Of a stretch of DNA of 64,000 bases, positions 5,825 through 61,149 are shown in pieces (the stretch's first letter is position 1; every line of letters starts with the position of its first letter). The position numbers and the translations under genes were made by a program. Source of the DNA: an uncultured Nitrososphaerales archaeon (GTDB lineage: Archaea; Thermoproteota; Nitrososphaeria; Nitrososphaerales; Nitrososphaeraceae); contig CAWJCY010000013.1 in the NCBI GenBank assembly GCA_963841565.1, positions 32,001-96,000 of the forward strand, read 5' to 3'. The notes beneath the pieces were generated by a model. That model had not been told where the DNA came from and did no database searches. It saw nothing but the letters and a program-made list of their open reading frames with translations.

Positions 5825-6533
5825 TTACCTTCCTATACACAGACCACTTGGATTACTTGTCTCACAGCTGTTGTCTACATACTGATTTGCATTGATATTT
5901 GTTGGTAGTCCGTTTGCATTGTTAAGGTCAATTACATTCTCAAGTACGTTATTTGCTGATATTGTATTCTGTATGCTCTGTCCATCAAGAAATACTCCAT
6001 TCTGACTTCCAACTACATTGTTCATTCCTATGTTGGACTGTTGTGAGTTGACAAATGTTATTCCTGCTAGCAAGTTTCCATTCATAAGGTTTGAGTCTAT
6101 AGCAGCACCTGTACTTGAGTGAGATGCTACACCTATACTATTACCTTGTATGATGTTTTGTTGTACTTGTGCATTTTCAGCTCCTGTCATAAATGTACCT
6201 ATCTGGTTGTTAGATAGTATGACAGAATTAATCGCAAATCCAGTTGCTCCAGTAAGAAGTACTCCTGCTTGGAAGTTGCTGATTGAACCAGGTCCATTTA
6301 CTACTACATTATCAACATTTGGTACCATAATTCCAACTTTAGAGTCTGTCCTGTCCAGGTCCTGTGATTGAGAATCCATTCATGTTAATTACTGTGTTTG
6401 GACCACCTACTATGATACCATCTCCACTGCAGTTAAGATTTGCAGTTAGATTTACTACTCCGCTTACGACTTGTCCACATGCTGCGTTAGTTGATGCTTC
6501 TGGAGTCCCACCACCTTGTTGTTGTGCAGCCGC
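5825..6533. repeat. dispersed ~0.7-kb repeat, copy 1 of 3 (others 15447..16154 direct, 60479..61149 inverted)
   Basis: manual alignment to copy 2 gives about 8 substitutions plus 1 indel. Confidence 0.95.
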
Positions 6534-6644
6534 GGTTGGAATATTTACCGCAATGATGCTCAAGGTCAAGAGGGCAACCATTCCTGATGCTACAATTATT
6601 GATGAAATCCTCCGACTTCTTTTATTAGTTCTACCTTGCTCCAT
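5825..6644 (-). pseudogene. secreted right-handed parallel beta-helix (NosD/pectin-lyase-like) protein, copy 1, with a 1-nt insertion near 6345
   Basis: ORFs 6339..6644 and 5825..6379 join on removing one base (agagTctgtc here vs agagctgtc in copy 2); signal peptide, CGQVV...LNC cap, N/G-rich repeats. The frameshift may be a sequencing error. Confidence 0.85.
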
Positions 6645-6671
6645 TCCTAATCGAAGAATGATGTAGTATTA

Positions 6672-6689
6672 GTATTATTTATGTGGATG
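6672..6689 (-). promoter_or_regulatory. conserved promoter element CATCCACATAAATAATAC of beta-helix copy 1
   Basis: same motif lies 27-28 nt upstream of the ATG in all three copies and contains a TATA-like core. Confidence 0.7.
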
Positions 6690-7315
6690 TATGAACTGTG
6701 CCCAAATTATGATTAATTCGTTTTGATCATAAATTTTGCCTTTAGCTGTTATTCGTAAAAGATTCCAGGTACATTATACAATTCTATAACTATAATCTAC
6801 TAGTTCCCCTATCGTAGCGGAATTTCGACAATATTCATGTAGCGAAGAACCATTTAGACAATTACCATATTTATCACGGTAAGATGTGAGTCGATTGCTC
6901 ATCAGGAGAACTTATCAGTGCGCAGATTTCATGGTTATTAGTTCAGGGACAAAGGCGCTTACACCGAATTGAACCAGAATTAATTTTTTTTAGCCTATCT
7001 CTATGAAATCGTGGTTGATACCCATTGCCCAGGCCTGTGCAAGGCTTGTCAAGTAAAAGAATGAGTTAATTCTTTTACGAATGATTCTAGAGATTTGTTA
7101 TAAACCTCTGACAATACTCACAGAATGAGATATTTTAAGTGATATTGATTCGCAGACCAATTGTCTTAGACTATTGTGAACCTCTGGTATGGCGAACGAA
7201 TTAGAACAAATTACTTCAATTGGATATCATCTATCAAGCTCACCGCCGCGTCTTCGAGTTCTTCTCTTCATGCAGTACAGAAACATTTTATTCTACCCTC
7301 ACTTTCATTTAGCTA

Positions 7316-8377
7316 ATGCCTATTTCAAAAAACTGAAGCTCATCATAGTTTCCATCGGAGTCATAGTAGTGGCTGGAAGTGTTTTGTTACTGCTCTATAC
7401 GGAGTATAACATTACGTTCAATTCACCATCTGCAGAAGAGAGCAGACCTATAAGAATAGCGTGTTCTGAACCTTGGGTAGGCTACGTCCCAATTATATTG
7501 GCCGTGGACAGATTCTTCAAGGAGAATAACGTCAAGGTGGAATTGATACAACCTGAGAATCAGACTACAACAGAAGAGTCATTTCTTAATGGATCAGTCG
7601 ATGGGCTATGCAGCATATTTACAACCACCATCTTTCAGAATTCAGAAGGAGTAAATTCTAGATTAGTATGGGTGTTGGATTACTCGGGTACCGGTGATGT
7701 TATCCTAGGTCCAAAGAATATGACAGTTAAAGATTTAAAGGGAAAAAAAATTGGGGTTGAAGGCCTTAATACATATTCTCATATTTTTGTATTACAAACC
7801 TTGGCCAAGGCTGGTTTATTTGAAAAGGACGTTCAATTTGCAAATATAGCCACCCAGGATATGGTAAAGGCTCTTAACGCCAAACGAATTGACGCAGGTC
7901 ATACGTTCGGACCAGCAAAAATTGCTGGTATTGCGGGGTGGGTATGATATTCTAGCGACTGCCGAAGATGCACCAGCGATTATCGCAGACGTTCTCCTTT
8001 TTAATTCCAAAGTAGTTGAGACAAGACCAGAAGCTGTAGAAGCTGTAGTAAAGTCGATTAATCAAGGAAAGGAATACTTTGATCGTAACAGGGAGCACGC
8101 ATACGTGCTTCTTTCAGATTTTTATAATATGACGACAGAAGAAGTACAAGATGGGTTTGAAGGGATACAGGTTCTTGGATTAGAAGATAATATTAAAGCA
8201 ATGAACCGATCGAGTTCAAATGTTCGCAACTTTACAACATTGTATGAATCAGGTAATATTATAGCCAATTACTTACTAGAAAAAGGTCAAATACGACAAA
8301 TACCGAATTTCGATGATATCATAGATCCGAAATTCATTTATGCTATTTCTAGAAACGAAACAATCCATGATGGTTAA
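7316..8377 (+). CDS. NitT/TauT (NMT1/SsuA-like) solute-binding protein, frameshifted
   Basis: N-terminal anchor, PWVGYVPIILA, LDYSGTGDVI, DLKGKKIG, IDAGHTF; ORFs 7189..7947 and 7889..8377 join near 7940; probable start MPISKK at 7316 needs one more A in an A-run. Confidence 0.8.
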
Positions 8378-8384
8378 CTGATTT

Positions 8385-10268
8385 ATGCAAATTCGATCAA
8401 GACTCTTCATTATCATGATATCTCTTGTTACGGCAGCTATTGTAGTTCCTTCAATTATAGCACTGAATACTTTCACAAAGAGTTTGGAAACCGAAATAAC
8501 TGAAGAACTTAAGATAAGTGCTCTAAACTCTATGGATAAATTGTCTAGACTCATGTTCGAACGCCTTGCAGACCTGAGATTTCTCACCTACCCAAGTAAC
8601 ACTGTAGTAACTAATTCTGACGATAATATCACTTTAGGGGAAAAGGTGGAATACCTGAGACAAATAGAAAAAGCAAATAAGGCATATGCCTCCATCTCAA
8701 TATACAACGCAAGCGGTATAAAAATTGGCGATACGCGAAGTATCGACATTGGTGTAAACGATTCGGGAGAACCATTTTACAAGAATGCCGCTAATGGCAC
8801 TTACTATCACGATAGTGTCCCCACCTATTCTAGGAGTTTGGGTCAATACGTAATTCATTTCTCTGGTCCTCTCTACAATGTCTACAACAATGAAACAGAA
8901 GGAGTCATGGTTCTAAAGTTTCCGCTCAACAAAATAAATGAGATTATGCTTGAGGCAGGCGGGACGATATCAAGTGATGCAAATATAGAATTAGTTTCTG
9001 ACGACGGACTGCTAATCTACTCAAACAATGATCCAAAGGCTGTTTTACAAAAAAAAGTAACAGAATTGAAGATACTGGACAAACTTCAGAATTCGACCAA
9101 TAGGGTAGAGTCTGAAATAGAAGCTGGCGACAACGGTGGTGGAGAGGTTACGGATACAATATTTATCGGCAGTAATGAACCTGGATTCTTGGATTATAGA
9201 GGAAACAACTGGTCACTAATCCTTGGTATAAGCACAGAAGATGCATTTAGGAACGTTGCGCTGCTTAGGAACCAGTTTATTGTTGTAGCAGTCATTATCT
9301 TGTCCATCTCTACCTTCCTAGTTTTTCTATTTGCAAGAAGCATTTCTAGACCAATAATAAAGCTGAGAGACGTTACGAATGAGGTTAGTAAGGGCAACCT
9401 TGGGATGAAGGTGGATATCCAAAAAAGCGGCGGTGACGAACTCATACAACTGTCATCAAGCCTCGAAAACATGAGGAAGACCATATTAGCCAGAACCGAA
9501 GAGGTCTTACGAGCAAATGAAGAGCTCAAATTAAAAGATAGATTGAAAGACGAATTCATTAACGTAGCCGCGCACGAGTTGCGGACACCCATACAACCAA
9601 TATTAGGGCTATGTGAAGTTCTTCGTTCCATAATAAGAAAAGGTAGTACTAGGAGTTCAAAAAGCGAAGAAGAAGAGCAGCTGTTAGATATTATTGTTAA
9701 GAATGCAAAGAGATTGCGTGGACTTGCTCAGGAGATATTAGATGTAACTCGAATCGAGAGTAAGGGGTTTGACTTGAATCTGGAATCCTTTGATCTTGTC
9801 GCATTGTTATCCAATATTGTGACGGACAATAGAGAGCAAATATCCAAACTTGAACGAAACATAAGTATAACATTTGAGTTTGAAGGGGAATACGAAAGAG
9901 GAGGAACAAATACAATTTTTGTGTACGCTGATAAGGAAAAAATTACTCAGGTCATTTCTAATTTGTTTGGAAATGCTGTTAAATTTACGAAGGATGGAAG
10001 TATATCAGTTAAAGTCAGCATAAATAAAGAAAATAATGAGGCTGTAATATGCATTAAAGATACTGGCCAGGGGATCGATCCGAGTATAGTGCCTCATTTA
10101 TTTACGAAGTTTAGCTCTAAATCCTTCGAAGGGATTGGATTGGGATTGTTTATTGCAAAGAATATAGTCCAAGCTCATGGAGGACGAATATGGGCTGAAA
10201 ATAATCCTGATGGTAAAGGTGCTGCGTTTTTCTTTACTTTACCGTTGTCACCACCATCCCAGTCCTAA
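8385..10268 (+). CDS. membrane sensor histidine kinase (TM-Cache-TM-HAMP-HisKA-HATPase)
   Basis: two TM helices, ISRPIIKL..DEL HAMP, AAHELRTPIQPI H-box, NLFGNAVKF, IKDTGQGI, GIGLGLFI. Confidence 0.95.
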   Translation: MQIRSRLFIIMISLVTAAIVVPSIIALNTFTKSLETEITEELKISALNSMDKLSRLMFERLADLRFLTYPSNTVVTNSDDNITLGEKVEYLRQIEKANKAYASISIYNASGIKIGDTRSIDIGVNDSGEPFYKNAANGTYYHDSVPTYSRSLGQYVIHFSGPLYNVYNNETEGVMVLKFPLNKINEIMLEAGGTISSDANIELVSDDGLLIYSNNDPKAVLQKKVTELKILDKLQNSTNRVESEIEAGDNGGGEVTDTIFIGSNEPGFLDYRGNNWSLILGISTEDAFRNVALLRNQFIVVAVIILSISTFLVFLFARSISRPIIKLRDVTNEVSKGNLGMKVDIQKSGGDELIQLSSSLENMRKTILARTEEVLRANEELKLKDRLKDEFINVAAHELRTPIQPILGLCEVLRSIIRKGSTRSSKSEEEEQLLDIIVKNAKRLRGLAQEILDVTRIESKGFDLNLESFDLVALLSNIVTDNREQISKLERNISITFEFEGEYERGGTNTIFVYADKEKITQVISNLFGNAVKFTKDGSISVKVSINKENNEAVICIKDTGQGIDPSIVPHLFTKFSSKSFEGIGLGLFIAKNIVQAHGGRIWAENNPDGKGAAFFFTLPLSPPSQS

Positions 10269-11053
10269 ACAAGAAACTATAAAGGTTAACAGAGGATGCC
10301 ATAAAAAATCTAGCAATCCTATATCATTACTATTGGGTTTCAAATATCATGTTTTCCCCTTACTTCCTTATTGCTATAAGATTTATCATCTGTCGACATC
10401 CTAGTTTTGCAATATCTAGGCAGTTTGGAATATTAAACACACAGATGCTTCGAAAGAGCGTAGTGAAAAGATACTTCAGTTAAAGAAGTACTAAATAAGC
10501 AAACTGTCTGAGCATAAACAAGGAGGGTGATATGTGTGAGGCAGCTAATAGGAACATAGAGATTGTATAAATGACTTCATTTTTCAACTAGTCTGTAGAC
10601 ATAATTAATGAATTACCAATTAATGAGCGGGACGCAATCGGGCCCAGGATAAAGATTGATACGAGCTTAAACAAGTAAGATATAGAAAATATTGGCCAAG
10701 AATATCCAATAATAAACATCAGTTTGTCTTGGAGGTATACATTACATAGACTTGTTGAGGAGATTCTTGTGCGGGAATAAAAACATCCCTTGACATACCA
10801 GACCAATATTAAGAGGTATCGAATACAACTCGTTCCAAGAGTCCCATATCATGCAAATATTTGATTCTTTTAGAATCTTTCATCAATTCTACTAAGTCAA
10901 CACATTCTTACGTTTTCTTCAATCGCGATAGGCCAGATACTCGGTAACTGAAATTTACAATACGATACGTAATTTGATGTGAGAAGTTAGTCTGCGATTG
11001 TATCTCCTCTTCTGCTCTCATAGTATTTCCAAATATAATTCACAAATACCGTA

Positions 11054-11647
11054 CTAATAGATTTCTTTGAGTTTTTCATCAATATATTCCTTGAAGTCGG
11101 AGTGGTTGAAAATGGAGAAACACTTCACTTTATCCTTCACAGAATTGTGCGGAACCTCTCTGTCTATTACTAGCACAACTCCGGTAGTTGAGTAACCTTC
11201 ACTTCTTACTGCCTCTATGGCTTGAACCACACTATTGCCTTTAGTCATTACATCGTCCACGACCACGACGGGATCAGCGAGATACCCTTCTACTTTTTTT
11301 CCGCTTCCATGAGTTTTAACGTTTCTTCTAACTATGAACTGCTTAATTCCCTCGGAACTGCTTCTCCTAAGACTACTTATTATTATTATTGCAGTTGATA
11401 TTGGGATAGCGCCCATCTCTAACCCACCTACTGATTTTGCATTAAATTCTTTAGAAATGATGTCGTATAGCAATTCACCGATAAGCGTGGCTCCAACTGG
11501 ATCTGTCAAAACCATTTTTAAATCATAGTAAAAATTACTCCTCTCACCGCTTGATAGAACTATCGGCTGACTAGAGACAATTATCCCATTTCTTTTAATA
11601 ATCTCCATCAGCACTTTTCTTTTCAGTTGACTTTCTATAAAATTCAA
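11054..11647 (-). CDS. pyrE: orotate phosphoribosyltransferase
   Basis: LSSGERSNFYYDL, GGLEMGAIPI, VRR..KTHG, PRPP loop VVVDDVMTKGNS, VIDR. Confidence 0.85.
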   Translation of the reverse strand: MNFIESQLKRKVLMEIIKRNGIIVSSQPIVLSSGERSNFYYDLKMVLTDPVGATLIGELLYDIISKEFNAKSVGGLEMGAIPISTAIIIISSLRRSSSEGIKQFIVRRNVKTHGSGKKVEGYLADPVVVVDDVMTKGNSVVQAIEAVRSEGYSTTGVVLVIDREVPHNSVKDKVKCFSIFNHSDFKEYIDEKLKEIY

Positions 11648-12056
11648 CCGATGGGTTCTCAGATAACGAACATAGAGCTTTCTTTATAAGTGTAGTGGAT
11701 TGAACTTCAATCAGTGTAATCATACACTTTTTTTAGCATTAATTTATTATTCTATTTGGTATTGCTTCTAGAATAGCCATGGCTCAAGGAATTATTCATC
11801 CTATATAGCACGCAGAAACTGAACCTTCTGAATCAAATAAAATAGCTCTTAGCTTTTAATGAACCTCTTATTGTGTTTGCCTGTCAACCAAGAAGTTAAA
11901 CAAGGGACGCGCAGTTCCAGAAAATTTATTTCTATTCTTCACAATAGGTATTGCAAGTTACATTGCTTACTTTGTACAAGACAGAAGGCCTAACTGATGT
12001 TCTATTTCAATGGGTCGGTTGGCACGATAGACACAGAAAAGTACTTTGAGAAAAAA

Positions 12057-12482
12057 CTATTGTAATTCGGCTTGAATCCTTTTCACTAATTCCTCTGTCT
12101 CTATAGGTTTCTTAATGAAGCAATCTATTTCAATTTGAGGGAACAATTCTCGTAAGGATCGGTAGTACACTTCAAATGCAGTGATAAAACACACCTTTGC
12201 TTTCTTGTCTAACTTCTCCAATTTCTCATATAATTGAAAGCCGTTCATTTTTGGCATCTTGATATCAAGTAGAAGTAAATTATACACACCCATCTTAAAA
12301 TTGGCCAGTGCTTCAGAAGGATCATTAAACGCGTCGACCCTGTAACCCTTACCTTCTAAACCCATTTTAAAAGTTGCAGTTACATCTGGCTCATCATCCA
12401 CTAAGAGGATTCTTTTGCTTTCCGTTGACGCACTGGTGGACAATGTGGATGAAAACTGTAAAGAAGAGGTTTCCTCCTGCAT
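12057..12482 (-). CDS. single-domain response regulator (receiver)
   Basis: ILLVDDE, LLDIKMPKMNG, FITA, IKKP. Confidence 0.93.
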   Translation of the reverse strand: MQEETSSLQFSSTLSTSASTESKRILLVDDEPDVTATFKMGLEGKGYRVDAFNDPSEALANFKMGVYNLLLLDIKMPKMNGFQLYEKLEKLDKKAKVCFITAFEVYYRSLRELFPQIEIDCFIKKPIETEELVKRIQAELQ

Positions 12483-12775
12483 ATTTACGCCAGTATTAGT
12501 ACAATTGTTAGTCCAGGATAAATAAGTTTAGGACATTCAGGTAAATAATTGCCAAGAACGACACGGTCAATAAGTTATCTTACAGGGAGATAAATTTCAG
12601 TCTAATAACACCAAAATTGAATTTATGCTCATGGACATTAAATAGACCATACCTTGACAAAGGGAATTGATTTGTTTGTTTGAGTATATTCCGCATCCCC
12701 TGTTTATTCGACGTCTCATCCATGTTTTTCCTATCCTTTAGGATCAAAGTGAAACGTTTCAAAACACAATAGTCA

Positions 12776-13372
12776 TTATCTCTTTTCTGACTGAGCTTCT
12801 CTACCTAAAACTAGTAACAAATTGATACCCGTCGCAGGAAATTTTCTCACTCCAAGCAATAGTTCATTAACCAACCCCTCCAATGGCCTGTCCTTAAATC
12901 TTGGGCCAAGCTCTAATAGCCATGATTTTGCTTTTTCAAAACCTTCAACTTTTTCGAGGGCTTTGCGAAGGCGTGTTTGATTAGTAACTAATGGAATCAA
13001 AGCATACAAGTACTCACTTATATATCGACTACCTTGAACGGTAATAGAGTACGATTCGAATTCTGTACCTTGATAAAAGGGGATACCTCTATGGAGCAAA
13101 GACGCTTCCTCCAACTCCTGTAATCGTGCTGACACATCACCCAGCCTCCTCGAAACAGGCTTTGCCGAAATCGGTAAGACATAAGGGACGTCTCCAATCA
13201 GGATTTTGATAGAATCAGGAAAAACAGTCCCGCTAGATTGACTTGAAGCTTGAGTTTGAAGCTGATTATCTGCATGTTGATGCTCTATACGAAAATATCG
13301 TTCTTCAGATGCAAGGTATATGAGGACAGCCGATTGAAAATCTGAATACTTAGACGCCTGATAAGTTGTCAA
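12776..13372 (-). CDS. hypothetical protein with probable winged-helix segment
   Basis: VSARLQELEEASLL...YSITVQG resembles a wHTH recognition helix plus wing. Confidence 0.5.
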   Translation of the reverse strand: MTTYQASKYSDFQSAVLIYLASEERYFRIEHQHADNQLQTQASSQSSGTVFPDSIKILIGDVPYVLPISAKPVSRRLGDVSARLQELEEASLLHRGIPFYQGTEFESYSITVQGSRYISEYLYALIPLVTNQTRLRKALEKVEGFEKAKSWLLELGPRFKDRPLEGLVNELLLGVRKFPATGINLLLVLGREAQSEKR

Positions 13373-14588
13373 ATCATATCTACCTATCCTTTTCTCTTAC
13401 TATACTGAGGAGCTCTATCTTATACGTGTCGATCCTCCTCGAATCAAAAAATGAACGATTTGAGGTTCTATCTATTCACGAGATGAATACCTCAACCGAA
13501 TGTAGAGATGTAAGCACATTAAAAAATTGAATACTTTAGCAAAGATCCCAAATATAGGAAGTAATAGTAAATTCTTTCTTAAGGTATATAGGGTGTTCAC
13601 CTCTTTTGTGAATCTGAAAATCACCATTGGCTAAAATCTACCTATTTGATTGGCGATGGCGTCAGATGGGTTGCTAATCCTCAACTACAATAAAAGGAGA
13701 TATCTCCAGTAAACGATAAAACAATGGAAAAGGACCATATCTATGGAAATATTCGACAAGCATAATATTGCGATGAGTGCATATTTCGTTGTAATGTTTG
13801 TTATCCCTCGATCGGGAGAAGTTGCGTTTCATGCTACAGTTTCTTAGACACGAAGTACTCAAATGAGATGAATTGGCAAGAAACATAGACTTGAGTTCAT
13901 GATCCACTCCATGGACAAGAAAGTCATCGGGCAGGAATTTATACCCCACTAGAGACGACAATAGCGTGTGGATTGGGGATGTATCAAAGACTGCCAGTAA
14001 ACCAGTGAATGTAGCGATACCCTTTGGCTACTACAGGAGCTCAGTATCCAATCAAATAGCGTAACCATTCGGAGAGCCATTGACAGTTCAGTTTGTACGA
14101 GAAGTATCAATAAATCTCGTGAAGCCCCATAGAGGAACGCATGTGAACTCTGAAAGTACTGATTTTGCTAGCAATTCTCTCCGTTTATTACAAATAACGG
14201 GGATCTGTTTACTGTAACTATACCGTAAATGCTGGTGCGGTGAAATGAGGCAACGCTAAGTGGAAGAAGATGAAGATTAAGAATGGAGCTAATGGCGACC
14301 AAACTGACACCTATTAATGGTCATTATACTGACTTTTTTGTTAGAATTTGCCTGATGATATTTTTCTTTGAAATACTGTAATCCTCAAGAATAATGAATG
14401 AAGTCATTTAGTCCTGAGATTTGAAAGTGGAATTTCCAGTTAGCCACGACGATGATTTTAGCTCCTTGGATTACATCTAAAAAAAACTTTTATTTAGAAT
14501 TAGATTGTTATAGTCTATCAGATTGAGCGATCGCCGAGATCTTTCCAAGGGACAAAAGGAGTATATCGAGGCGGGAAGCGGAGCTGGA

Positions 14589-14699
14589 ATGGCGACATCT
14601 TCTAGAGCAGTCTGCGACTACTGTGATGAAGGGAGACATAACGAATGCAATACAGAATCAAAATGCTATTGTGCAAAGAACGGACATAGGATGCTTTGA
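14589..14699 (+). CDS. 36-aa Cys/His-rich microprotein (not in ORF track)
   Basis: MATSSRAVCDYCDEGRHNECNTESKCYCAKNGHRML*. Confidence 0.55.
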   Translation: MATSSRAVCDYCDEGRHNECNTESKCYCAKNGHRML

Positions 14700-15446
14700 G
14701 AGAATCATTGTTATCGCTAACTTGATGATATATAATCTCGTCAGGATTCTTACGATCTTATTTCTTTGTTCATCATCACAGGCTCAATAATTAGCGTGAT
14801 ATATTCGGCCGAACAAGCACGTATAATTTCATTGCTAACGCTCCTCCCATCTTCCTAGTCGTTGCCATTAATTTGATCGTGTGGGTTTCTCTTCTCCGAT
14901 GTTATATATTCTCACTTAATGGGTCGCTTTTTGTATGTCCCTTTAAACCAACGCTAAATGAATGGTACAAGAAGAAGGAGTCAAAAACATTAATGAAAAA
15001 TCAAAAGTAAGATAATTGAATAACGCTTTTGATACCAAAAAATGAACTATTTTTCAAAGATTATGTAGGAGGGATCAGTCTCGATATGATAATGATTGTC
15101 ATTCTGAGTAGTAGATATCTAAATTTTTCCAGGAAGGGCTGTGTAATCTAATTAGGAAATTCGGTTCAGGTCTTTATTAGAATCGACTCTGATCCCGACA
15201 CAGGATCATCAGAAATCTCTGAGTGCAACTAAATCATTAACACAATCTGTATCACTTACCGAACAGGAATTAGCTGAAGGCCATTTTATAATTGGGTCAA
15301 AAGATAAGATTAGGACATGTATTTTCCTTTGGTGACGCAATCTTCGCTTTCTCGGTAACCTTCATGGCATATCAATTTTGATATAATAATCATTGAAGAC
15401 GGTCAAAAAAGGGAGAGATTGACCTTATACAGGTTAGTGGATTAAA

Positions 15447-16259
15447 TTACCTTCCTATACACAGACCACTTGGATTACTTGTCTCACAGCTGTTGTCTAC
15501 ATACTGATTTGCATTGATATTTGTTGGTAGTCCGTTTGCATTGTTAAGGTCAATTACATTCTCAAGTACGTTATTGGCTGATATTGTATTCTGTTTGCTC
15601 TGTCCATCAAGAAATACTCCATTCTGACTTCCAACTACATTGTTCATTGCTATACTTGACTGTTGTGAGTTGACAAATGTTATTCCTGCTAGCAAGTTTC
15701 CATTCATAAGGTTTGAGTCTATAGCAGCACCTGTACTTGAGTGAGATGCTACACCTATACTATTACCTTGTATGATGTTTTGTTGTACTTGTGCATTTTC
15801 AGCTCCTGTCATAAATGTACCTATCTGGTTGTTAGATAGTATGACAGAATTAATCGCAAATCCAGTTGCTCCAGTAAGAAGTGCTCCTGCTTGGAAGTTG
15901 CTGATTGAACCAGGTCCATTTACTACTACATTATCAACATTTGGTACCATTATTCCAACTTTAGAGCTGTCCTGTCCAGGTCCTGTGATTGAGAATCCAT
16001 TCATGTTAATTACTGTGTTTGGACCACCTACTATGATACCATCTCCACTGCAGTTAAGATTTGCAGTTAGATTTACTACTCCGCTTACGACTTGTCCACA
16101 TGCTGCGTTAGTTGATGCTTCTGGAGTCCCACCACCTTGTTGTTGTGCAGCCGCAGGTGTTGCTATACCTATTGTCAGTGTGCTCAATGTGATTAGCGTG
16201 ACCAATATTGATGCCGCTATCATGGATGATATACTACTACGCTTGCCTTCTAGTTCCAT
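15447..16259 (-). CDS. secreted right-handed parallel beta-helix protein, copy 2 (intact)
   Basis: signal peptide ending AAA-QQQ, N/G-rich beta-coil repeats, terminal Cys pairs, C-terminus CETSNPSGLCIGR. Confidence 0.9.
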   Translation of the reverse strand: MELEGKRSSISSMIAASILVTLITLSTLTIGIATPAAAQQQGGGTPEASTNAACGQVVSGVVNLTANLNCSGDGIIVGGPNTVINMNGFSITGPGQDSSKVGIMVPNVDNVVVNGPGSISNFQAGALLTGATGFAINSVILSNNQIGTFMTGAENAQVQQNIIQGNSIGVASHSSTGAAIDSNLMNGNLLAGITFVNSQQSSIAMNNVVGSQNGVFLDGQSKQNTISANNVLENVIDLNNANGLPTNINANQYVDNSCETSNPSGLCIGR

Positions 16260-16287
16260 TTCTTAATCAACCAGAATCAAAGAATCT

Positions 16288-16305
16288 GTATTATATATAT
16301 GGATG
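16288..16305 (-). promoter_or_regulatory. conserved promoter element CATCCATATATATAATAC of beta-helix copy 2
   Basis: identical 18-mer upstream of copy 3, and 2 mismatches to copy 1. Confidence 0.75.
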
Positions 16306-16469
16306 CATGCACAGTACTAAATCTATTATTGATTGCATTTGATTATAAATATTCATTCAAGTTATTGACGATAAGGCTTTACTAGTAAAATTACTTCTTC
16401 TACTGTAACAATGTTATACCATTTGACCACTAAAATACCGTGTGGGAAATGAACCAAGTTACAAATTGA

Positions 16470-52210: not shown

Positions 52211-52768
52211 ATGTCTGACAACCAATACATTTCAGAAAAAAAGGATGAAATGCCTCTCCCACCTGAACTGCTGCCTGGAGAGGTTGTTACACAAGAAATG
52301 ACTCCTGTGGAAAAAATGATTCCACTTGAGGCAAGCATTGAGTCAACAGTTACCGAGGGAAAACTTCCAAAACCGGAATCTGAATTAAAACAAGAAAAGC
52401 ATCGCCTTAGGAAAATGACTCGGATGCGACAAACAAGCGCAAAGTTAGGTCAATTATTGAAGCAAGTCAAGAGAAATGAAGCTGAGATTTATGAAATCAG
52501 GAAGTCGATAGAGTCCTTAGATCGTATGGAGAGGATAGCTGCTAGAAGCAACTTGCAGCTATTGAAACAACTTCTGTTGCGGCTTGCTCAATTGCACAAC
52601 CAAGTGATGCGAATTCAGAAAGACTTTCGCAGAATGAGGACATCCACAGCGTCGAGGACCAGAACTCGAAAAATCAAGGCGTCAGGTGGTAAAACTACTC
52701 GCAAAATGAAATCTAAAAAACGCGGATCATCTCTTCTTGCTAAAACTAGAAGGAGGACAACCAGATAG
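52211..52768 (+). CDS. coiled-coil protein with very basic C-terminal tail
   Basis: acidic Pro-rich N-terminus, heptad region, R/K/T/S-rich tail. Confidence 0.7.
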   Translation: MSDNQYISEKKDEMPLPPELLPGEVVTQEMTPVEKMIPLEASIESTVTEGKLPKPESELKQEKHRLRKMTRMRQTSAKLGQLLKQVKRNEAEIYEIRKSIESLDRMERIAARSNLQLLKQLLLRLAQLHNQVMRIQKDFRRMRTSTASRTRTRKIKASGGKTTRKMKSKKRGSSLLAKTRRRTTR

Positions 52769-53562
52769 CAACAATTAGCAGTTCTGTTAGTTGTATAAGC
52801 AGACTGATTCAACACAGAAGTCTAGACTAGTACTAAAACACAACATTTTTGGATTCATTATCAGGGTCGTGCATTTAATAGATGGTAGGGGTACGGCCAT
52901 CCAATTTCTGAACATTTTGCAGTGACTGAGCACCATTGATTATGATGCAAGAATACTGCAACGTCAGCTTTCATATAGTAACGTCACTGTGATAAAGAAA
53001 AGGTGAGTGGGCCGAGAAGCAGATAAACTCATGCTAATCTGTAAGCCATTTACTCCTCCAACCCCATAGATTTGTGGATTTTCTCAAACTCAATATCTGC
53101 CCACAGTCCCAAAACAGCCGCAAAATGATATCCTTTGATGGTCAGATGACCTGATCCCCTCAAATGGATCACCTAAATGGATCTAGCATTGGTGGCCCAA
53201 ATGTTCTTCATGTATTAAGAAAAAGTGGTATTAACGCATTAGCGTTGACTGCCGGTATAATTTCTTCATAATCCAAGGCACATGCTCAAATCAATTAAAC
53301 AATTCAAATATCGAAGCATAAAAGTAAGAATTATTCAAACGGCAGGAAATTAGCCCGCCGCCGGGTCATGGTTGATCTAGCCAGAATAATCCCAATAACC
53401 GGGAATACGATATGCATTATTCAATAAAAGAGTTACATATCTAAGCATAGCCCGTATTGGGATACATTTACTATCACGAAGAGGGTCGCTGTTGTCTGCA
53501 TTTGGTAATATGTAATATACATACGTCGTATCTAAGTTAGTGATACTGCAAACATAATATTA

Positions 53563-53742
53563 CTAAGGATACTTCTGATCTTTCTTTTCATCATCGGAGT
53601 CATGACGTGTCCCATGTGTTTTTATGAATCTTAATAAATCACTGGAATGATGGTCTTCAACCATATAGTAGTTCTTTAGATTTTCAATTGTTTGATCATC
53701 GTAATGACTTCTACTATCCCCTTTTTTCTTCTCCGTTCTCAA
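53563..53742 (-). CDS. 59-aa hydrophilic small protein (not in ORF track)
   Basis: TTG start; MRTEKKKGDSRSHYDDQTIENLKNYYMVEDHHSSDLLRFIKTHGTRHDSDDEKKDQKYP*. Confidence 0.45.
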   Translation of the reverse strand: MRTEKKKGDSRSHYDDQTIENLKNYYMVEDHHSSDLLRFIKTHGTRHDSDDEKKDQKYP

Positions 53743-53951
53743 TATATTATTAAGTAATCAGATAAAATAAAAAACTATCGGATAATATTTTATGTATTAT
53801 TCTATATATTTAGTACACGAATTTAAATTTGGTCAGAAACTGGCGTAACTGCTGTCATAAATGCCTGATAATTTATTTCTAAAATAAAGTTGTTTGCTAG
53901 ATTCGTAGAGTTAAATTAAAATACATCAATTAAGGAAAAGGAGGCTTCACT

Positions 53952-54354
53952 ATGGGAAAGGGTTGCGACAGTAATGATGGTGGTGATGAGCAAAAGTATA
54001 GTACTAGAATTGAAATGGATGTGGATAATAAACGTATTCATGATGATGGTGACAATACTAATGGTAGTAACTCCATAGAGGACCCTGCAGCCACAAGTGT
54101 TGATGCATTAGATAACTGTACTACTGCATTTGTGGAGAGGTTGGATTCGGGCAGAAAGCAGTAATCACCTAATGAATTTGGATTTACCCATCATTTTACT
54201 GGAATTCATTAAGGATAACCGTACAATATTATATGATTGGAATTTAGAATCTGAGATAGATGTGGAAATCAAAGAAGCTGTTCCATTTCGTACATCATGC
54301 ATCCTAGATGAGTGTTCACGCGTAGGATTTACTACATCCTTAACAAATGTGTAA
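53952..54354 (+). pseudogene. fragmented hypothetical gene
   Basis: overlapping ORFs 53952..54164 and 54130..54354 on the same strand, GGAGG upstream. Confidence 0.35.
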
Positions 54355-54648
54355 GAGCCGGTTAGTAGTTATCAAGAATTATCTGTAGACGATATTGTCA
54401 ATAATTTGACTACTATGATTAGGATAGATGCAAAGATTAGCCTATTCATTTTCTGCGATTTAGCTCATCTATCTATTCCGTTGATTCTTCTATCTTGTCA
54501 CTAGGTGAAGGGCCAAGCGGAGATTCAGGGGCGAATATCCTCCTTGTCTTCCCAACTTATAAAATGAGAAAATATGATAAAACAATCCTATCCTAACAAG
54601 GCTGAGCCATCGCTTAAGTAAAAATCGCTAGTGATTCCTACAAAGTTT

Positions 54649-55099
54649 TTAATCGTTCAGACGGTTCACTATCTCTATTTTAGATAATTCAGCCAAGGGA
54701 GCTGCGTATTCGTAAACAATTTGATCACTACTTATTTTCCTCATTATGCCCCTTATTTCCGTGACTTCTATCTGCTTTTTTATTCGTTGAAATCGCCACA
54801 TAGACTGACCTATCACAATTTTGAATCTCATATTTCCAGATTCGTAATCCTTCTTTTCTAAGGTCCAGTATTCAGATTCTTGAGTATTTTCATCAATTTT
54901 TGGATTTAGATTCAGAAAATGCGCAACTATTCTTTCAGATCTTCCATCGTATTCGATCAAAAATATCCTTTTATCATTAACAAACTCCAGACGTATCATG
55001 TCGGCCATAAAACTTTCGTCGCCTGAGTACCTGAATTTCTATCTTCGGGTTCGCTTGGGTCTCTTCATTTTGGGACATTATTGATTGGCTACCAGCCAT
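54649..55099 (-). CDS. hypothetical protein, probable frameshift near 55025
   Basis: ORF 54649..55008 plus upstream ATG 55099 segment (MAGSQSIMSQNEETQANPKIEIQVL) in the adjacent frame. Confidence 0.55.
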
Positions 55100-55415
55100 T
55101 TAAAGAATGACTAGCCTATTAAAAAAAGTATTCAGGAAAGTCATTTAGGGGAGCTAGAGGATTTATCAATAAATCCAAATTCTTTTGTGCAGTTACAGAT
55201 AAGAATCAGGGAGGTTAAGTTAAAGTAATGCTTACAAATTTACTCAGTTCAGAAGGTCATAATCACTGCAAGAAAGGACGAAACGCCGTTTAGATGATAA
55301 AGATGGCCTCCAATTCTCTGCTCATCCTTTAGTTTAGGCTATTTTTTACTGTGAATGCATTTATTTTAGTATTTTAGCGGATATCCTTAACTGACAGTAA
55401 ATCAAAAAGGGCACT

Positions 55416-56042
55416 ATGGTACAAGACAAGCAAAGACAAAAAAATGACGAAATTTTACACAGTTCTAACAATACACATGCAAAAAGAAAGGCTTTGAAGG
55501 ATATAATCATTATTGGAGGGGTAATATTGTTGGCATGGTACCTCACAGCATATGTTTTTTCGTCAGTAATACCACAATGGGCCATGACATACATAAAAAT
55601 TGCAGAGATTTTAATTATAGGTTATTTTTTTGTGGAAATAGTAAGCAATTTGGTATTCCGCCTGACTTCCAATTATTTTGGAGATACTGCACATTCTATC
55701 AAAGTTTTCATAAGAATAGCTAGTGCTATTGTAATCGCTGCAATCATTATTTCATACCTCAGTAAAGACCCACTAGTAGCAGCTTCCATAACTACAATCA
55801 CAGGGTTGGTGATAGGGTTTGCCTCGCAATCACTTATTGGAAACCTAATAGCTGGTTTGTATTTAGCCAGCACAAGGCCATTCAAAGTTGGAGACAACAT
55901 AACGGTATTTGGAAACACTGGCCTGATATATGAAATAGGCCTCCTGTATAGCAGGCTCCTGTCTGACACAGGCGATATAATCATTGCATCCAATAATTCA
56001 CTGGTATCAGCTACGATTAAAGTTCACAAGAAAGAAATTTGA
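55416..56042 (+). CDS. mscS: small-conductance mechanosensitive channel (short form)
   Basis: TM helices, GLVIGFASQSLIGNLIAG, RPFKVGD, IGLLYS. Confidence 0.88.
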   Translation: MVQDKQRQKNDEILHSSNNTHAKRKALKDIIIIGGVILLAWYLTAYVFSSVIPQWAMTYIKIAEILIIGYFFVEIVSNLVFRLTSNYFGDTAHSIKVFIRIASAIVIAAIIISYLSKDPLVAASITTITGLVIGFASQSLIGNLIAGLYLASTRPFKVGDNITVFGNTGLIYEIGLLYSRLLSDTGDIIIASNNSLVSATIKVHKKEI

Positions 56043-56740
56043 AGAGAATATTCTCAGCTACGACCAGTGGAGTAGGGGGGTATAACTAATATTTTGGAGA
56101 TACCCTCAACCTACTTCTATTATTCCTAAGAATATCGATTGAGCTATCGCCTCAGGTTGTGGGAGTTCTCGTAGATGGGGTACCCAAGGCTAGCGTATAT
56201 CTCATCGTCTAGATTAGGTTCAGAAATTGTACCTCATAGAAGATGCATAGAGAATTCTTGAAATAATTGAGGCCTTCAAGAATCTTGGATTGTAAGTGTT
56301 GTCCTCATAGCATATTGTCAAGCATATCTAATCAATGTCGTAGAATCTTCTTTCAAAACCAGATTATCTAACTCAGGACTACTTTTTACATCACTGTTTG
56401 TGTTCGTCGTTTAAGAAATGCTTAATTAGAGTTCGGATAAAATAAGTCGAAAAATAAGAATCGAGAAAAATTATAATTATGAAAACTTTAGGACTCTTAT
56501 TATCATTTGTGTGCTCATGTGTAAGCTATCGTTGTATAAGGCAATGTAAGTGAAGGTGGACCTGATCGATTGACGCTTTTCTAAAAGAGATTACCTCCAG
56601 GTATGGAGATTGGCAAGACTCCGTACTTGCATTATGTCTGCTGACCCAATTTTAGAACGAAGTCAGTTCAGAGCAGCCATTCAGTGACTGGCACGGAAGT
56701 CTCAGATTTACTAAAACGCCATTGCAAATCAAGTTTTAGT

Positions 56741-57415
56741 CTATTTGTGGATCAATCTACCATGGTATGTGAGATGCTCCTCAATACTCTTATTGGACCT
56801 AAGGGAATGATCGTGACCTACCATTATATGCTGACAGACCGAATTCCCATCATACTGTAGTATCACTCCAGTTTCCTTGTTCCTGATGGTATGCAGGTTA
56901 TCCACATATTCCAAACATCCAGGTCTGTAGAATAGTTTGGGTAAATTTTGAACGTCACCATCAACATCTAAAATATTCTCTTCATTCTTGTCCAGATTGC
57001 GTCTTATAGTAGGGAGGCAATACCCATGCGCTTGTGTAACGCTGGTATTAATCTTGTGAAGGAGATCCAAATGGAACAGATCCCAATTTGTAGCTGTGGG
57101 TAAAATGTATTCATCAGAATCTAAGACGATTAGTACATCAATGCCGAGCTTTCTGCATTCATCAAAATACTTTTGTCGCTTCTCCATTTCCACTAATCCA
57201 CTTGTTGCTAGATATCTTACGGGATATTGGAAGCTCTTGACAAGATCTAGGCATTGTTGATCTGAAAGCTCTCCTTCCGCCGGGTATTCCTTAAACTTGC
57301 CATCTACGGCAATTAGATAGTCTAATGGATAAGTCTGGAGTGAGTAAAGGCAGCGAGTTAACGAATGTACATCTTGATAGAAACACAGTCCTATTCCTAT
57401 CGATAAATTATTCAT
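56741..57415 (-). CDS. GT-A fold (GT2-like) glycosyltransferase
   Basis: LTRCLYSL, IAVDG, EKRQ, LIVLDSDE DxD motif. Confidence 0.7.
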   Translation of the reverse strand: MNNLSIGIGLCFYQDVHSLTRCLYSLQTYPLDYLIAVDGKFKEYPAEGELSDQQCLDLVKSFQYPVRYLATSGLVEMEKRQKYFDECRKLGIDVLIVLDSDEYILPTATNWDLFHLDLLHKINTSVTQAHGYCLPTIRRNLDKNEENILDVDGDVQNLPKLFYRPGCLEYVDNLHTIRNKETGVILQYDGNSVCQHIMVGHDHSLRSNKSIEEHLTYHGRLIHK

Positions 57416-58360
57416 ATGTCGAATGCCACCTACAATTTGGGAAATTTTCCATTTACAATGGAATGATATAAGTGTTTGTAATACTTAAACGGATCCAGAT
57501 GATATGCTCATCCAACCACTAAGAGGCACTAAATGTAATCTTTCATGTCACGCGACCAGACCACTTAGGCCCAACTAATTTTTACCAATTATGTTGATTT
57601 TTTCTAATGAGCGAATGGATCATTTCGTCGGATTGCCAATCCTGTCTTAAATTTCCTATTTGTTCGTGTTCCCTTGGTATTTGAGCGAGGACATGTTAGT
57701 TCTTTTACTAATTAATGAAGTAGCTCCTAATATTAGTTGATGACCTGCCTATTGATTAGACCTATTTTCCTTCACGAATATGTTGTGGGCTAGAGTATCC
57801 TGCGTCTCTATTCAGGTAGTAGGATTTCGAGGAGCACTAGTACCCGAGATAATCGAAATTAAATTCGTATTGGAGAATGTCCCTGAGTATGGTGAGATGA
57901 TCTGTCTTGAAACATTCAAACTAGATTTGTAAAATTCTATTTCTAGATCATAGTATCTGACGTCATCAAGAGTAGCAGAATCATTTAGTATTAAAAGAAT
58001 CCTCACTACCAGCTATGAATAAACTTCATAAGTGCAACACCAATAATAGCAAAAGTTATAGTGCCACAATTAGGATAGGCGAAGACAAATTTGGTCTGTT
58101 AAGAACACTCACTAATTCAAATAATGGAATCGATCTTACCTAAAATCGGTCTTTTGATTAGTATATATTCAGAGTAAATCCATTTATCCAAAATCCCAAC
58201 TATTAGCTAGCTTTTGCTTTCAAGCGTATCTACTTGACAAGCGCTAGGTTGCACTAGATGGAGCATCAGTCAATGAAGGATACAATAATGAATCGTAACA
58301 ATGTACCATATGTGTTGTTAGAAAGACTCAAATAATATGGTATGAAGCCAAAAATTGTAG

Positions 58361-59407
58361 ATGACATCAAGTTCAATCCACTCCTTTAATCTAGACACCA
58401 CAGAGCCCCAAGCCGTTTGCAAAGGCGGTAACAGAACAATAGTCAGTAGTGATAACTTCCCAGTCCTCAAGGGGATGGCATTGTATCTGTTGCGTTTGGA
58501 AAAAGGTGGCATACGTGAGCCCCACTGGCATCCTAATGCAGCAGAATTGAGTTACTGTGTCAGAGGGAAGGCGATTATGACAATATTTGGCCCCGATGCT
58601 TCCGTTGACACTTTTACTGTAGATCGAGGAGAGATTGTATTTGTGCCACGTGGCTATATCCACCATATTGAAAATATAGGATTGGAGGAAGCAAAGTTCG
58701 TGCTTGCATTTAACCACGAGAAACCCGAAGATCTAGGGATTACCGGTTCGCTTGGCTCCATGCCCAATAGGATCCTTGATAAGACGTTTAACCAACATTC
58801 AAATTTTTTCAGTCAGTTTAATTATGGATCCTCCAAGGATATCTTGATCGGATCTAGACAGGATTTACAGTTATCAACGGAGGCCAGGGATGAGCTTAGT
58901 CGAAGGATCCCAAATAACCACAAATTTAATCTCGATGGGATTCCGCCTCAAATTCAGAATGGAGGCGGTACAGTTTCTTTGGGCAATGCTAGTAATTTTT
59001 CCATCCTAAGCGGCCTTGCTTGCTATTCTCTATTTCTTAGGCCCGGCGGGATTAGAGAACCACATTGGCACCCTAACGCAGCTGAATTAGACTATGTGGT
59101 TGAAGGTATAGCAAAAATGGTAATTCTAAGTCCAGGCGGGAATGTTGATTCATTTGAAGTAAAAGCAGGAGAAATCGTGTTTATTCCTTCTGGATACCTT
59201 CACTATATAGAAAACGCTGATGCAGAAAAAATGACTCAGTTTGTGGTATTCTTTGGCCATGAACGACCAGAAGACATAGGCATTTCTGGATCCCTGAGCG
59301 CATATTCAAATGAGGTTTTGGCCGCCATAATAGGTACCGATCCAAAAATTTTTGATTCACTTACTAGGCATGATGAAGATGTTTTTATCGTATCAGGGGG
59401 TGCCTAA
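58361..59407 (+). CDS. oxalate decarboxylase-like bicupin
   Basis: two copies of GGIREPHWHPNAAEL and P.GY.H.IEN metal-binding motifs. Confidence 0.85.
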   Translation: MTSSSIHSFNLDTTEPQAVCKGGNRTIVSSDNFPVLKGMALYLLRLEKGGIREPHWHPNAAELSYCVRGKAIMTIFGPDASVDTFTVDRGEIVFVPRGYIHHIENIGLEEAKFVLAFNHEKPEDLGITGSLGSMPNRILDKTFNQHSNFFSQFNYGSSKDILIGSRQDLQLSTEARDELSRRIPNNHKFNLDGIPPQIQNGGGTVSLGNASNFSILSGLACYSLFLRPGGIREPHWHPNAAELDYVVEGIAKMVILSPGGNVDSFEVKAGEIVFIPSGYLHYIENADAEKMTQFVVFFGHERPEDIGISGSLSAYSNEVLAAIIGTDPKIFDSLTRHDEDVFIVSGGA

Positions 59408-60225
59408 GAATTATGTATGTTATTTCAGATAAGTCATTGTAAACATCGGATAAATCATGTCGTGACAAACTCTACTTTAATTGACCCTTGAACAGATCAT
59501 GTCAGCTAAATTATCTGGTCACATTGCATTGTTTTTCAGATTATAACAAGACCCTTAATAGAAATAATTACAGAGTATGGAAAGTCGTTGATTCAGAAGG
59601 GACCGTTATCTAATAGGTATGTATTCTTGCTATGGAAATTCTGCCGATCACGGTCTAAATAATTTAAAGGATGGAATATAGTTCTTAGCTAGTTAATGGC
59701 TTTGTATCATCGTATTTCGTATCTATATTTAGTGCTGATGCCAGCCTTTCTCCAAGTACGTCTGAGATGAATTATTGGGAGATAATCTATCGAATTTCTG
59801 GCTCAACACTGCCTGGTAACTTGTGATTGATTCGTTGTCATCTTAATGAATATGCTTATTGCCGAATAGAAGGGGTATTGTCTTAGTTCGCAAGTCGGTA
59901 CTAGAGATTATTCAGAATCTTTTGAATTTGATTAGTGATAATACGAATATTCTGGAAGGTATAAAGCAGATGGACGCATGCATAAGTAGTGAAGATGAAG
60001 GGAAGGCGGTATTACGGCTGTCATGATACTATAACAGCACTGTAGTTCCATTCTTAATGCCTTCCCTTCATGTCTTACAAAAAGGGACTGTCGAGCAGTT
60101 CAGTGAAGCTAGATATGATCTTTTTTAATTCATCTATTAATTGTACTAGCAGTCAGTTCCATTCAATAATTTAAAAAAATAGTGAAGGTTGAATGCACCA
60201 ATTATTGGGTTCAGTACAATTAATA

Positions 60226-60243
60226 CATCCATATATATAATAC
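60226..60243 (+). promoter_or_regulatory. conserved promoter element CATCCATATATATAATAC of beta-helix copy 3
   Basis: identical to the copy-2 element; 27 nt upstream of the ATG. Confidence 0.75.
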
Positions 60244-60270
60244 GGATACTACAGATATTTTGATTTCGGA

Positions 60271-61149
60271 ATGGAACTAGAAAGGAAACGAAGTATTCTA
60301 TCTATAGCAGGAAGCGGGCTAGCATTGCTAACTTTATTGACTTTGAGTAGTGTGACGATGAGCGTTATGTCAGCAACAGCACAGCAACAAGAGCAAGGTA
60401 GCATGACCACAGGAGCTGATGAATTGTCATTTACTTCACTCTCTGAGCAACAGGCAGTAGCTTCACAGACACAGGAACCATCAACTAACGCAGCATGTGG
60501 ACAAGTCGTAAGCGGAGTAGTAAATCTAACTGCAAATCTTAACTGCAGTGGAGATGGTATCATAGTAGGTGATCCAAACACAGTAATTAACATGAATGGA
60601 TTCTCAATCACAGGACCTGGACAGGACAGCTCTAAAGTTGGAATTATGGTACCAAATGTTGATAATGTAGTAGTAAATGGACCTGGTTCAATAAGCAACT
60701 TCCAAGCAGGAGTACTTCTTACTGGAGCAACTGGATTTGCGATTAATTCTGTCATACTATCTAACAACCAGATAGGTACATTTATGACAGGAGCTGAAAA
60801 TGCACAAGTACAACAAAACATCATACAAGGTAATAGTATAGGTGTAGCATCTCACTCAAGTACAGGTGCTGCTATAGACTCAAACCTTATGAATGGAAAC
60901 TTGCTAGCAGGAATAACATTTGTCAACTCACAACAGTCAAGTATAGCAATGAACAATGTAGTTGGAAGTCAGAATGGAGTATTTCTTGATGGACAGAGCA
61001 TACAGAATACAATATCAGCCAATAACGTACTTGAGAATGTAATTGACCTTAACAATGCAAACGGACTACCAATAAACATCAATGCAAATCAGTATGTAGA
61101 CAACAGCTGTGAGACAAGTAATCCAAGTGGTCTGTGTATAGGAAGGTAG
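60271..61149 (+). CDS. secreted right-handed parallel beta-helix protein, copy 3 (intact, longer N-terminal linker)
   Basis: core 60479..61149 is nearly identical to copies 1 and 2 in inverted orientation. Confidence 0.9.
   Translation: MELERKRSILSIAGSGLALLTLLTLSSVTMSVMSATAQQQEQGSMTTGADELSFTSLSEQQAVASQTQEPSTNAACGQVVSGVVNLTANLNCSGDGIIVGDPNTVINMNGFSITGPGQDSSKVGIMVPNVDNVVVNGPGSISNFQAGVLLTGATGFAINSVILSNNQIGTFMTGAENAQVQQNIIQGNSIGVASHSSTGAAIDSNLMNGNLLAGITFVNSQQSSIAMNNVVGSQNGVFLDGQSIQNTISANNVLENVIDLNNANGLPININANQYVDNSCETSNPSGLCIGR

Follow-up and report, generated by a model that had tools for sequence, protein, structure and literature searches.

Near-identical beta-helix domains behind divergent leaders in an ammonia-oxidising archaeon: dispersed paralogues probably homogenised by gene conversion

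A 64,000-nt stretch of the genome of an uncultured Nitrososphaerales archaeon (assembly GCA_963841565.1, contig CAWJCY010000013.1, positions 32,001 to 96,000; hereafter the window) carries three copies of a beta-helix gene that are almost the same over the mature protein domain and clearly different in their signal peptides. How do dispersed genes with leaders of their own come to share a single domain? An earlier note, made from the letters of the window, had proposed that these are old paralogues whose mature domains are kept alike by repeated gene conversion, and it is this proposal that we weigh here. The genome under study (G000) is a 2.05-Mb metagenome-assembled genome in 13 contigs, with a completeness of 88%; the window lies on contig C13. 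G000 encodes archaeal AmoA and belongs to an ammonia-oxidising archaeon of the Nitrososphaeraceae; public records of close homologues bear the label Nitrososphaeraceae archaeon. Comparison copies were taken from the two most contiguous relatives, G001 and G003. An unpublished genome, G013, contributed single rows to the genome search, the leaders, the core tree, the divergence estimates and the extra-base counts; none of the conclusions rests on these rows.

The three copies lie where the note had placed them (Table 1), but copy 1 is not one open reading frame (ORF), being split by an extra base. The sharing of about 670–710 bp at roughly 98–99% identity described in the note was borne out as a core of 671 nt that runs from the codons for STNAACGQ through the stop codon, over which copy 2 is 98.955% identical to copy 3 and, with one gap, 98.661% identical to copy 1. 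The gene is not simply triplicated, as had been thought: the count of genomic copies that the note called for, carried out on the whole assembly, added a fourth near-identical copy on contig C3 and two diverged paralogues on C12. Core identity among the four near-identical copies ranges from 98.4% to 99.0%, with 15 variable columns out of 672, and every copy has kept private single-nucleotide polymorphisms (SNPs). Almost all columns are variable past the stop codon and, at the other end, upstream of about -9 nt, and for copies 1 and 2 the upstream limit of similarity is at -37 nt; identity thus ends at the stop codon and near the mature start, as had been claimed. In the alignment all four copies have a run of T's within about 50 nt past the stop codon. 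The two C12 paralogues take no part in the homogenisation. Each is single-copy, they lie about 20 kb apart, and the same pair is found about 20 kb apart in G003 and in G001.

Table 1. Positions of the beta-helix gene copies and their parts, in window coordinates unless a contig is given.
Feature	Position	Strand	Remarks
Copy 1, locus class B	5825..6644	-	two overlapping ORFs as deposited
Copy 1, first ORF	6339-6644	-	101 aa; leader and first 50 mature residues
Copy 1, second ORF	5825-6379	-	184 aa
Copy 1, homogenised core	5825..6496	-	mature beta-helix domain, STNAACGQ to stop codon
Extra base in copy 1	6345	-	A on the coding strand inside AG^CT, codon of conserved Ser98
Linker stretch of copy 1	6497..6533	-	37 nt, encodes AAAQQQGGGTPEA; matches copy 2 only
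Promoter-like TATA element of copy 1	6672..6689	-	CATCCACATAAATAATAC; ends 27 nt before ATG
Copy 2, locus class A	15447..16259	-	intact 270-aa ORF
Copy 2, homogenised core	15447..16117	-	
Promoter-like 18-mer of copy 2	16288..16305	-	CATCCATATATATAATAC; ends 28 nt before ATG
Copy 3, locus class C	60271..61149	+	intact 292-aa ORF, longer linker
Copy 3, homogenised core	60479..61149	+	
Promoter-like 18-mer of copy 3	60226..60243	+	CATCCATATATATAATAC; ends 27 nt before ATG
Copy 4, locus class D	C3:236182-236853		98.4% identical; from whole-assembly search
Paralogue c5	C12:65142-65808 (also given as C12:65141-65914)		72% nucleotide identity
Second diverged paralogue	C12:86009-86704		44% protein identity

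Outside the core, each copy belongs to a leader class, and these classes recur across species, among the copies of G000, G001, G003 and other relatives. The signal peptides of the three window copies are diverged just as the note had described (MEQGRTNKRSRR in copy 1, MELEGKRSS in copy 2 and MELERKRS in copy 3). Class A leaders begin MELEGKRSSISSMIAAS and are represented in G000 by copy 2; class B, beginning MEQGRTNKRSR, is represented by copy 1, class C (MELERKRSILSIAGSG) by copy 3, and class D (MNQTS..SIMFAIVAMGIVFSVSG) by copy 4, while class E and others, which have various starts, have no copy in G000. The conflicting relationships seen along the gene were also recovered. Copies 1 and 2 share an exact 37-nt match (6497-6533 and 16118-16154) that encodes the linker AAAQQQGGGTPEA, whereas copies 2 and 3 have ATGGAACTAGAA in common together with the promoter-like 18-mer CATCCATATATATAATAC, which in all 2.05 Mb of the assembly is matched exactly at these two copies only. 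The variant of copy 1, CATCCACATAAATAATAC, is also present at the class-B locus of G001, G007 and G008, and is one base off in G003. Across classes A and B the linker is genome-specific, being AAAQQQGGGTPEA in G000 and (P)ATAQQGGGTPPGA in G003, and between these two classes the converted region appears to extend further upstream. In classes D and E (copy 4; L011, L030, L037, L038 and L041) an N-terminal hydrophobic helix is followed by a low-complexity linker of about 100 residues, rich in Asn, Asp and Gln; the linkers of classes A to C are short. The same beta-helix head would thus sit on stalks of differing length.

The loci themselves are old. The whole window is collinear with positions 228001-308000 of G001 contig C25 and with positions 190001-270000 of G003 contig C5, and the spacing of the B-A-C trio is kept in all three species, at about 10 kb and then 38–48 kb. 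Thus, the three loci are older than these species.

The cores tell a different history from the leaders. In a maximum-likelihood core tree of 32 rows (29 copies and 3 c5-type outgroup rows), all four G000 copies grouped together (support 94/88), as did four of the five copies from G001 (88/79) and ten of the eleven from G003 (100/98); two copies from the fragmented genome G005, of classes D and E, paired at 96/93. The leader tree, built from 330 nt of promoter and leader in 14 rows, grouped sequences across genomes instead, with support of 99/98 for the five class-B rows, 100/100 for the three class-C rows and 29/0 for class A. Approximately unbiased (AU) tests agreed: a G000 clade was rejected for the leaders (p = 5.1e-6), and for the cores both a class-B clade (p = 1.5e-49) and a class-C clade (p = 3.6e-5) were rejected. 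Separate trees for the two parts had been proposed as a check, and with class A excepted they came out as anticipated, cores by genome and leaders by locus.

Synonymous divergence (dS) separates the same two parts. Between the cores within G000, dS is 0.020–0.040. For ten neighbouring single-copy genes it is 0.20–0.42 between G000 and G001 and 0.17–0.62 between G000 and G003, after four rows were excluded as bad alignments (orf169 in two rows, AAA_12 against L046, and c4flank137). The c5 paralogue forms its own clade at 100/100, with a dS of 0.25. Since c5, at 72% identity, evolves as a plain orthologue, only sufficiently similar copies seem to take part in conversion.

Variants within the core are shuffled among the copies. 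Along the informative sites of G000, copies 1 and 2 stand against 3 and 4 at positions -8 to -1, copies 1 and 4 against 2 and 3 at 151, the first partition returns at 215, the second at 461-469 and the first again at 599. These are at least four switches along the core, which implies that conversion tracts are short, below about 200–400 nt. A 3-nt insertion (NLNC-N-SGDG) is likewise present in 8 of the 11 G003 copies and in none of the four from G000. Its carriers in G003 are L036, L038-L041, L043, L047 and L048, spread over several leader classes, and L037 and L046 are not among them. The same spot (CTGCAG) holds frame-breaking indels in L049 of G001 and L042 of G003.

In sum, the species are younger than the loci but older than the cores, whose variants are mosaic. 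Old loci with young mosaic cores point to concerted evolution by gene conversion, and it is from this combination that we infer the recombination mechanism itself. We put at about 85% the probability that these are old, dispersed paralogues whose mature-domain cores have been homogenised in this way; the collinear loci, the trees and AU tests, the core dS of 0.02–0.04 and the mosaic sites all favour the interpretation that the earlier note had offered. Each locus would retain its own promoter, N-terminal signal or anchor and low-complexity linker, all passed on by ordinary descent, and the mature-domain segment of about 670 bp would be overwritten again and again, copy to copy, by short-tract, non-reciprocal homologous recombination. 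Such overwriting would keep the copies of one genome 98–99% identical, synonymous sites included, and its tracts would run no further than homology does, to the stop codon at one end and to the first mature residue, or slightly upstream of it, at the other. The likely reason would be a need for the same surface domain, probably in abundance, from several genes that differ in regulation and in tethering; a high-dosage or co-assembling product, the reason suggested in the note, may be what is served.

Several observations weigh against this interpretation. Two copies, L050 of G001 and L043 of G003, fall outside the clade of their own genome, so that homogenisation would be incomplete. The mosaic is based on only 11 informative sites, which may reflect about five events, and the variants of each copy are phased as the assembly gives them. 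Ordinary genes in these assemblies have 1-base indels, and the mosaic could in part have arisen from reads cross-mapped during polishing. Finally, core dS between species is 0.07–0.10, against 0.2–0.6 in the neighbouring genes; conversion alone does not predict so low a value, and an added constraint or biased correction is therefore needed.

Could the near-identity itself have been produced by the assembly, with merged or cross-mapped reads making diverged copies look alike? A 13-contig metagenome assembly of 88% completeness, with 1-base indels in ordinary genes, invites the question. We nevertheless think this very unlikely. The same pattern is present in three separately assembled genomes and in the fragmented G005, the copies have private SNPs, and reads could not cross-map between copies that differed as much as the flanks do (83–90% identity). 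In addition, merging within an assembly cannot give low core divergence between species.

That low divergence is ordered. Core dS between G000 and its relatives is 0.068–0.082 for G001, 0.089–0.097 for G003 and 0.14 for G008, and between species it is 4–5 times below that of neighbouring genes. As core divergence follows the order of relatedness and the cores form genome clades, a slowed clock explains the low values better than recent transfer. The amoA gene has a dS of 0.124 to G003 and 0.172 to G008 (in this set, the row comparing ORF 251-1259 with G008 was excluded as a bad alignment). The multi-copy core (window 15447-16117 and others) has a G+C content at third codon positions (GC3) of 0.25 and an effective number of codons (ENC) of 41.5, compared with 0.445 and 51.6 for amoA, 0.38 and 48.6–51.4 for the two main thermosome genes, and 0.405 and 56.9 for c5; the EF1a row, which was out of frame, was left out. 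Of 600 long ORFs only 0.3% reach so low a GC3, placing the core below the 1st percentile. As a cause of the low dS, high expression would be in keeping with the similar value for amoA, but the codon bias of the core is opposite to that of amoA and the thermosome. Strong synonymous-site constraint or biased copy correction would fit the slow divergence of the core.

The same data bear on the suggestion that the core is a cassette which a mobile element or virus has carried horizontally from locus to locus and between species. Homology borders at the domain limits, a between-species dS so far below that of the flanking genes and an outlying GC3 are what such a cassette might leave behind. It is, however, hard to reconcile with core divergence that follows relatedness, in the order of the class-B leader tree, with cores that clade by genome and with the similarly low dS of amoA, and there is no recombinase, inverted repeat or target duplication beside the copies. 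We regard horizontal movement of this kind as highly improbable. A search for inverted repeats or target duplications common to the copies found none, the window gave no match to Rfam families, and the neighbours are ordinary; on these grounds we rejected a mobile element, in agreement with the note, which had seen no hallmarks of one. The ten flanking ORFs that were scanned encode a DUF790 protein, an NMT1-like binding protein, a sensor kinase, a phosphoribosyltransferase, a matrixin, a bicupin and an AAA_12 helicase, together with a second piece of the NMT1-like gene that gave no match and two ORFs without any match. A perfect, AT-rich 14-nt inverted pair (60128-60141 and 61630-61643) surrounds copy 3 and is absent at the other copies; it is probably due to chance.

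The idea that the copies are not old at all but recent duplicates, products of birth and death, is hardly credible, for although high identity that includes synonymous sites is how a recent duplicate looks, the loci keep their synteny across three species, between which neighbouring genes have a dS of 0.2–0.6, duplication would also have copied the promoter, leader and 3' flank, and the leaders and promoters are diverged between paralogues, on branches of 0.12–0.62 changes per site, yet match their orthologues.

A separate question is raised by the extra base, which is the same in copies 1 and 4. In copy 1 it turns GAC-AGC-TCT-AAA into GAC-AGA-CTC-TAA and splits the frame into ORFs of 101 and 184 aa. 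By a reading of the alignment, copy 4 appears to have a second frame break, in the linker, with its start codon out of frame with its core. An extra base at the same AGCT occurs at two of four sites in G000, at three of six in G001 (one with G in place of A), at three of eleven in G003, and at none of the nine sites in six fragmented genomes. We think it somewhat more likely than not that the base is a consensus error. A real, inherited null allele that conversion has moved between copies, perhaps extended to an on/off switch or a programmed +1 frameshift, is a serious alternative, though we lean against it.

A real allele would account for the recurrence of the insertion in three genomes and for its distribution, since it is found in seven of the nine copies of the syntenic B-A-C trio and in one of the twelve others, within an identical 26-mer context (Fisher p = 0.002, post hoc). 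Further frame breaks, moreover, are present in four of the eight frameshifted copies (L054, L048, L047 and, by alignment reading, copy 4), and in only two of the thirteen insertion-free copies (L049 and L042). There was also no general excess of AGNCT at candidate frameshifts in G000, with 34 observed against 39.5 expected. These came from a reference-free scan for ORF pairs joinable by a 1-base deletion, which returned 303 events; the scan has low power because many of the events are simply adjacent genes.

The opposing evidence comes first from the motif. AGCT is touched by 14 of 78 polarised single-base indels in the 64-kb syntenic region of three assemblies, where 1.6 would be expected (p = 8.5e-10). 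Among indels outside the beta-helix genes, long ORFs contain 8 of the 10 that are linked to AGCT, compared with 27 of the 62 others (p = 0.043), and because most of the former lie within long ORFs, consensus errors fit better than tolerated mutations. In the available parts of two reports, AGCT is described as carrying N4-methylcytosine (m4C) in Thaumarchaeota, including strain MY3 (PMC11033074, PMC8919816), so that the insertion sits at an m4C motif of this phylum. Several of the indels between assemblies are +1 insertions exactly at AG^CT. As a class, the AGCT indels may stem from consensus errors linked to methylation or may mark a true hot spot of mutation.

The distribution of the allele in other data points the same way. 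It is missing from all nine sites in the six fragmented genomes, and JGI contigs gave 21 instances of the intact allele, each a single-frame match, and none of the insertion allele. The diagnostic shifted N-terminus was found in 5 cluster representatives, all on contigs of 19.6–258 kb, and among the 120 listed of 227 it came from neither JGI nor Logan; a number of JGI proteins of 167 aa with MVPNV as their start are ambiguous. The +A form occurs also in lineages that are just 80–81% identical (P0143, P0151), and a different insertion at the same AGCT, GATAGC to GATACAC, breaks the c5-type paralogue L055 of G001. A +1 frameshift product would lose the conserved Ser98-Ser99. We judged a programmed +1 frameshift unlikely, given that four of eight shifted copies are broken further, that Ser98-Ser99 would be altered and that the allele is found in long-contig assemblies only. 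A conversion-driven phase switch of differently tethered surface beta-helix copies, in which the AG^CT insertions would be the mutational signature of an AluI-type restriction-modification system, seems very unlikely to us.

Ordinary neighbouring genes of G000 are broken too, near 7934 and 62868, which again speaks against a real allele. Near 7934 an extra base splits the NMT1-like binding-protein gene into 7189-7947 and 7889-8377; the gene is a single ORF in G001 (398 aa) and in G003 (375 aa). At about 62868 the AAA_12 helicase gene has an extra T inside AG^CT (AAAG[T]CTAC) relative to G001 and G003, and the 441-aa AAA_12 ORF of G001 matches G000 in two frames. Elsewhere in G000, at C6:311554-313042, one of four thermosome (Cpn60_TCP1) genes is broken into two pieces (profile positions 1-134 and 140-490). 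Stop-to-stop ORFs of 120 codons or more cover only 55% of the window, and several 3–4-kb stretches are free of long ORFs, perhaps because coding density is low or because indels have broken genes. Copies 1 and 4 should not be called pseudogenes on the deposited sequence alone, as their frame break is more likely than not a consensus error, and the 1-base indels that gather at AGCT when these archaea are assembled into long contigs can mimic pseudogenes.

What does the shared core encode? The product is predicted to be a small, exported right-handed beta-helix protein of about 220 mature residues. It matches the Pfam family NosD (PF05048) with an E value of 5e-12 and 46 bits, against a threshold of 23.6. 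An alignment of 22 family members has four invariant cysteines, C54, C70, C258 and C267, which make two conserved pairs, an invariant A-x-H-S within an ASHSS motif, and a conserved S98-S99-K100. The AlphaFold2 model (mean predicted local distance difference test score, pLDDT, of 86.9, and above 90 in each 10-residue block of 51-260) has a helix at the N-terminus and, in about eight coils, a right-handed beta-helix. Foldseek returned generic beta-helix proteins only, the best of them tailspikes and alginate epimerases and lyases, with inulin fructotransferases also among them, at template-modelling (TM) scores of 0.24–0.57 and identities of 9–16%. A sequence search of the PDB with the family profile gave no match.

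Homologues are publicly annotated as 'nitrous oxidase accessory protein NosD', which is a domain label only. The protein resembles NosD in its predicted right-handed parallel beta-helix, in its PF05048 match and in the rank of 40 that NosD (PDB 7osf) reached in Foldseek. It differs in size, with about 220 mature residues compared with the 377 positions of the subfamily profile TIGR04247, against which it scored 28 bits where the cut-off is 300, well short of a full-length match. It differs also in setting: nine of the ten flanking ORFs match no nos family or no family at all, and the tenth, 7189-7947, is NMT1-like. Among these flanking ORFs we identified no nos families, no search for nosZ having been made across the genome. 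The TIGR04247 score, with the lack of association with nos genes among the flanking ORFs scanned, led us to reject a true NosD, and the 'NosD' label on these genes is no evidence for nitrous oxide reduction.

This protein family is common throughout its genus. All 13 other genomes searched there have it, as do 21 of 24 in the family Nitrososphaeraceae, and it was found in none of 16 genomes from other families of the order; sequencing runs that contain the window stretch make up 22 rows from 13 studies. Relative genomes have many matches each, and many of their contigs stop within the gene. That contigs of fragmented relatives often break off inside the core is expected of a true high-identity repeat. 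A multi-copy, codon-biased family so widespread in one soil Nitrososphaeraceae genus is a candidate for a major surface or secreted component, and is probably an important family of surface proteins. In Nitrosocosmicus, NosD-domain genes are described as clade-specific or extra copies, with conversion unmentioned in the available parts of the two papers (PMC11559005, PMC13577086).

How does this system compare with others in which gene conversion acts on repeated genes? In the silent-cassette systems pilE/pilS, vlsE and msp2, gene conversion generates variation. As in those systems there are several copies, some of them broken, that exchange short tracts, but conversion here removes diversity, leaving copies that differ by 1–2%. 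Antigenic or phase variation from silent cassettes was accordingly rejected: copies 1 to 3 each have a promoter-like element and an ATG, core diversity is 1–2%, and no single expression site is evident. A parallel may also be drawn with plastid inverted repeats and Y-chromosome palindromes, in which gene conversion maintains identity between the copies and divergence between species is slower than in single-copy sequence. Copy correction combined with slowed divergence is common to these and to the beta-helix genes, but theirs are large two-copy structural repeats and ours are short, dispersed genes, in which the slow divergence could equally be due to synonymous constraint (ENC 41.5, dS like that of amoA).

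Concerted evolution by gene conversion is familiar from tufA/tufB and from rRNA operons. It has been described as long-lasting for prokaryotic paralogues of 26 genes (PMC6053082) and for the duplicated mtrA of methanogens (PMC4632066). As far as the available parts of these reports go, the beta-helix genes share with those cases paralogues that are closer within a genome than orthologues are between genomes, a homogenised segment confined to the region that is still similar, and loci older than their similarity suggests. The same parts describe two copies, whereas here there are at least four dispersed copies, and eleven sites in one relative (G003). Also unlike those cases, as described there, a single protein domain is homogenised here while promoter, signal peptide and linker escape, and the host is an ammonia-oxidising archaeon. 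A literature search, judged by titles, found no report of gene conversion between paralogues in ammonia-oxidising archaea. We conclude that concerted evolution is cleanly displayed here, though with precedents elsewhere, as a known process that our literature search found unreported in these organisms, and that the beta-helix genes offer a clear example of its domain-limited form in ammonia-oxidising archaea.

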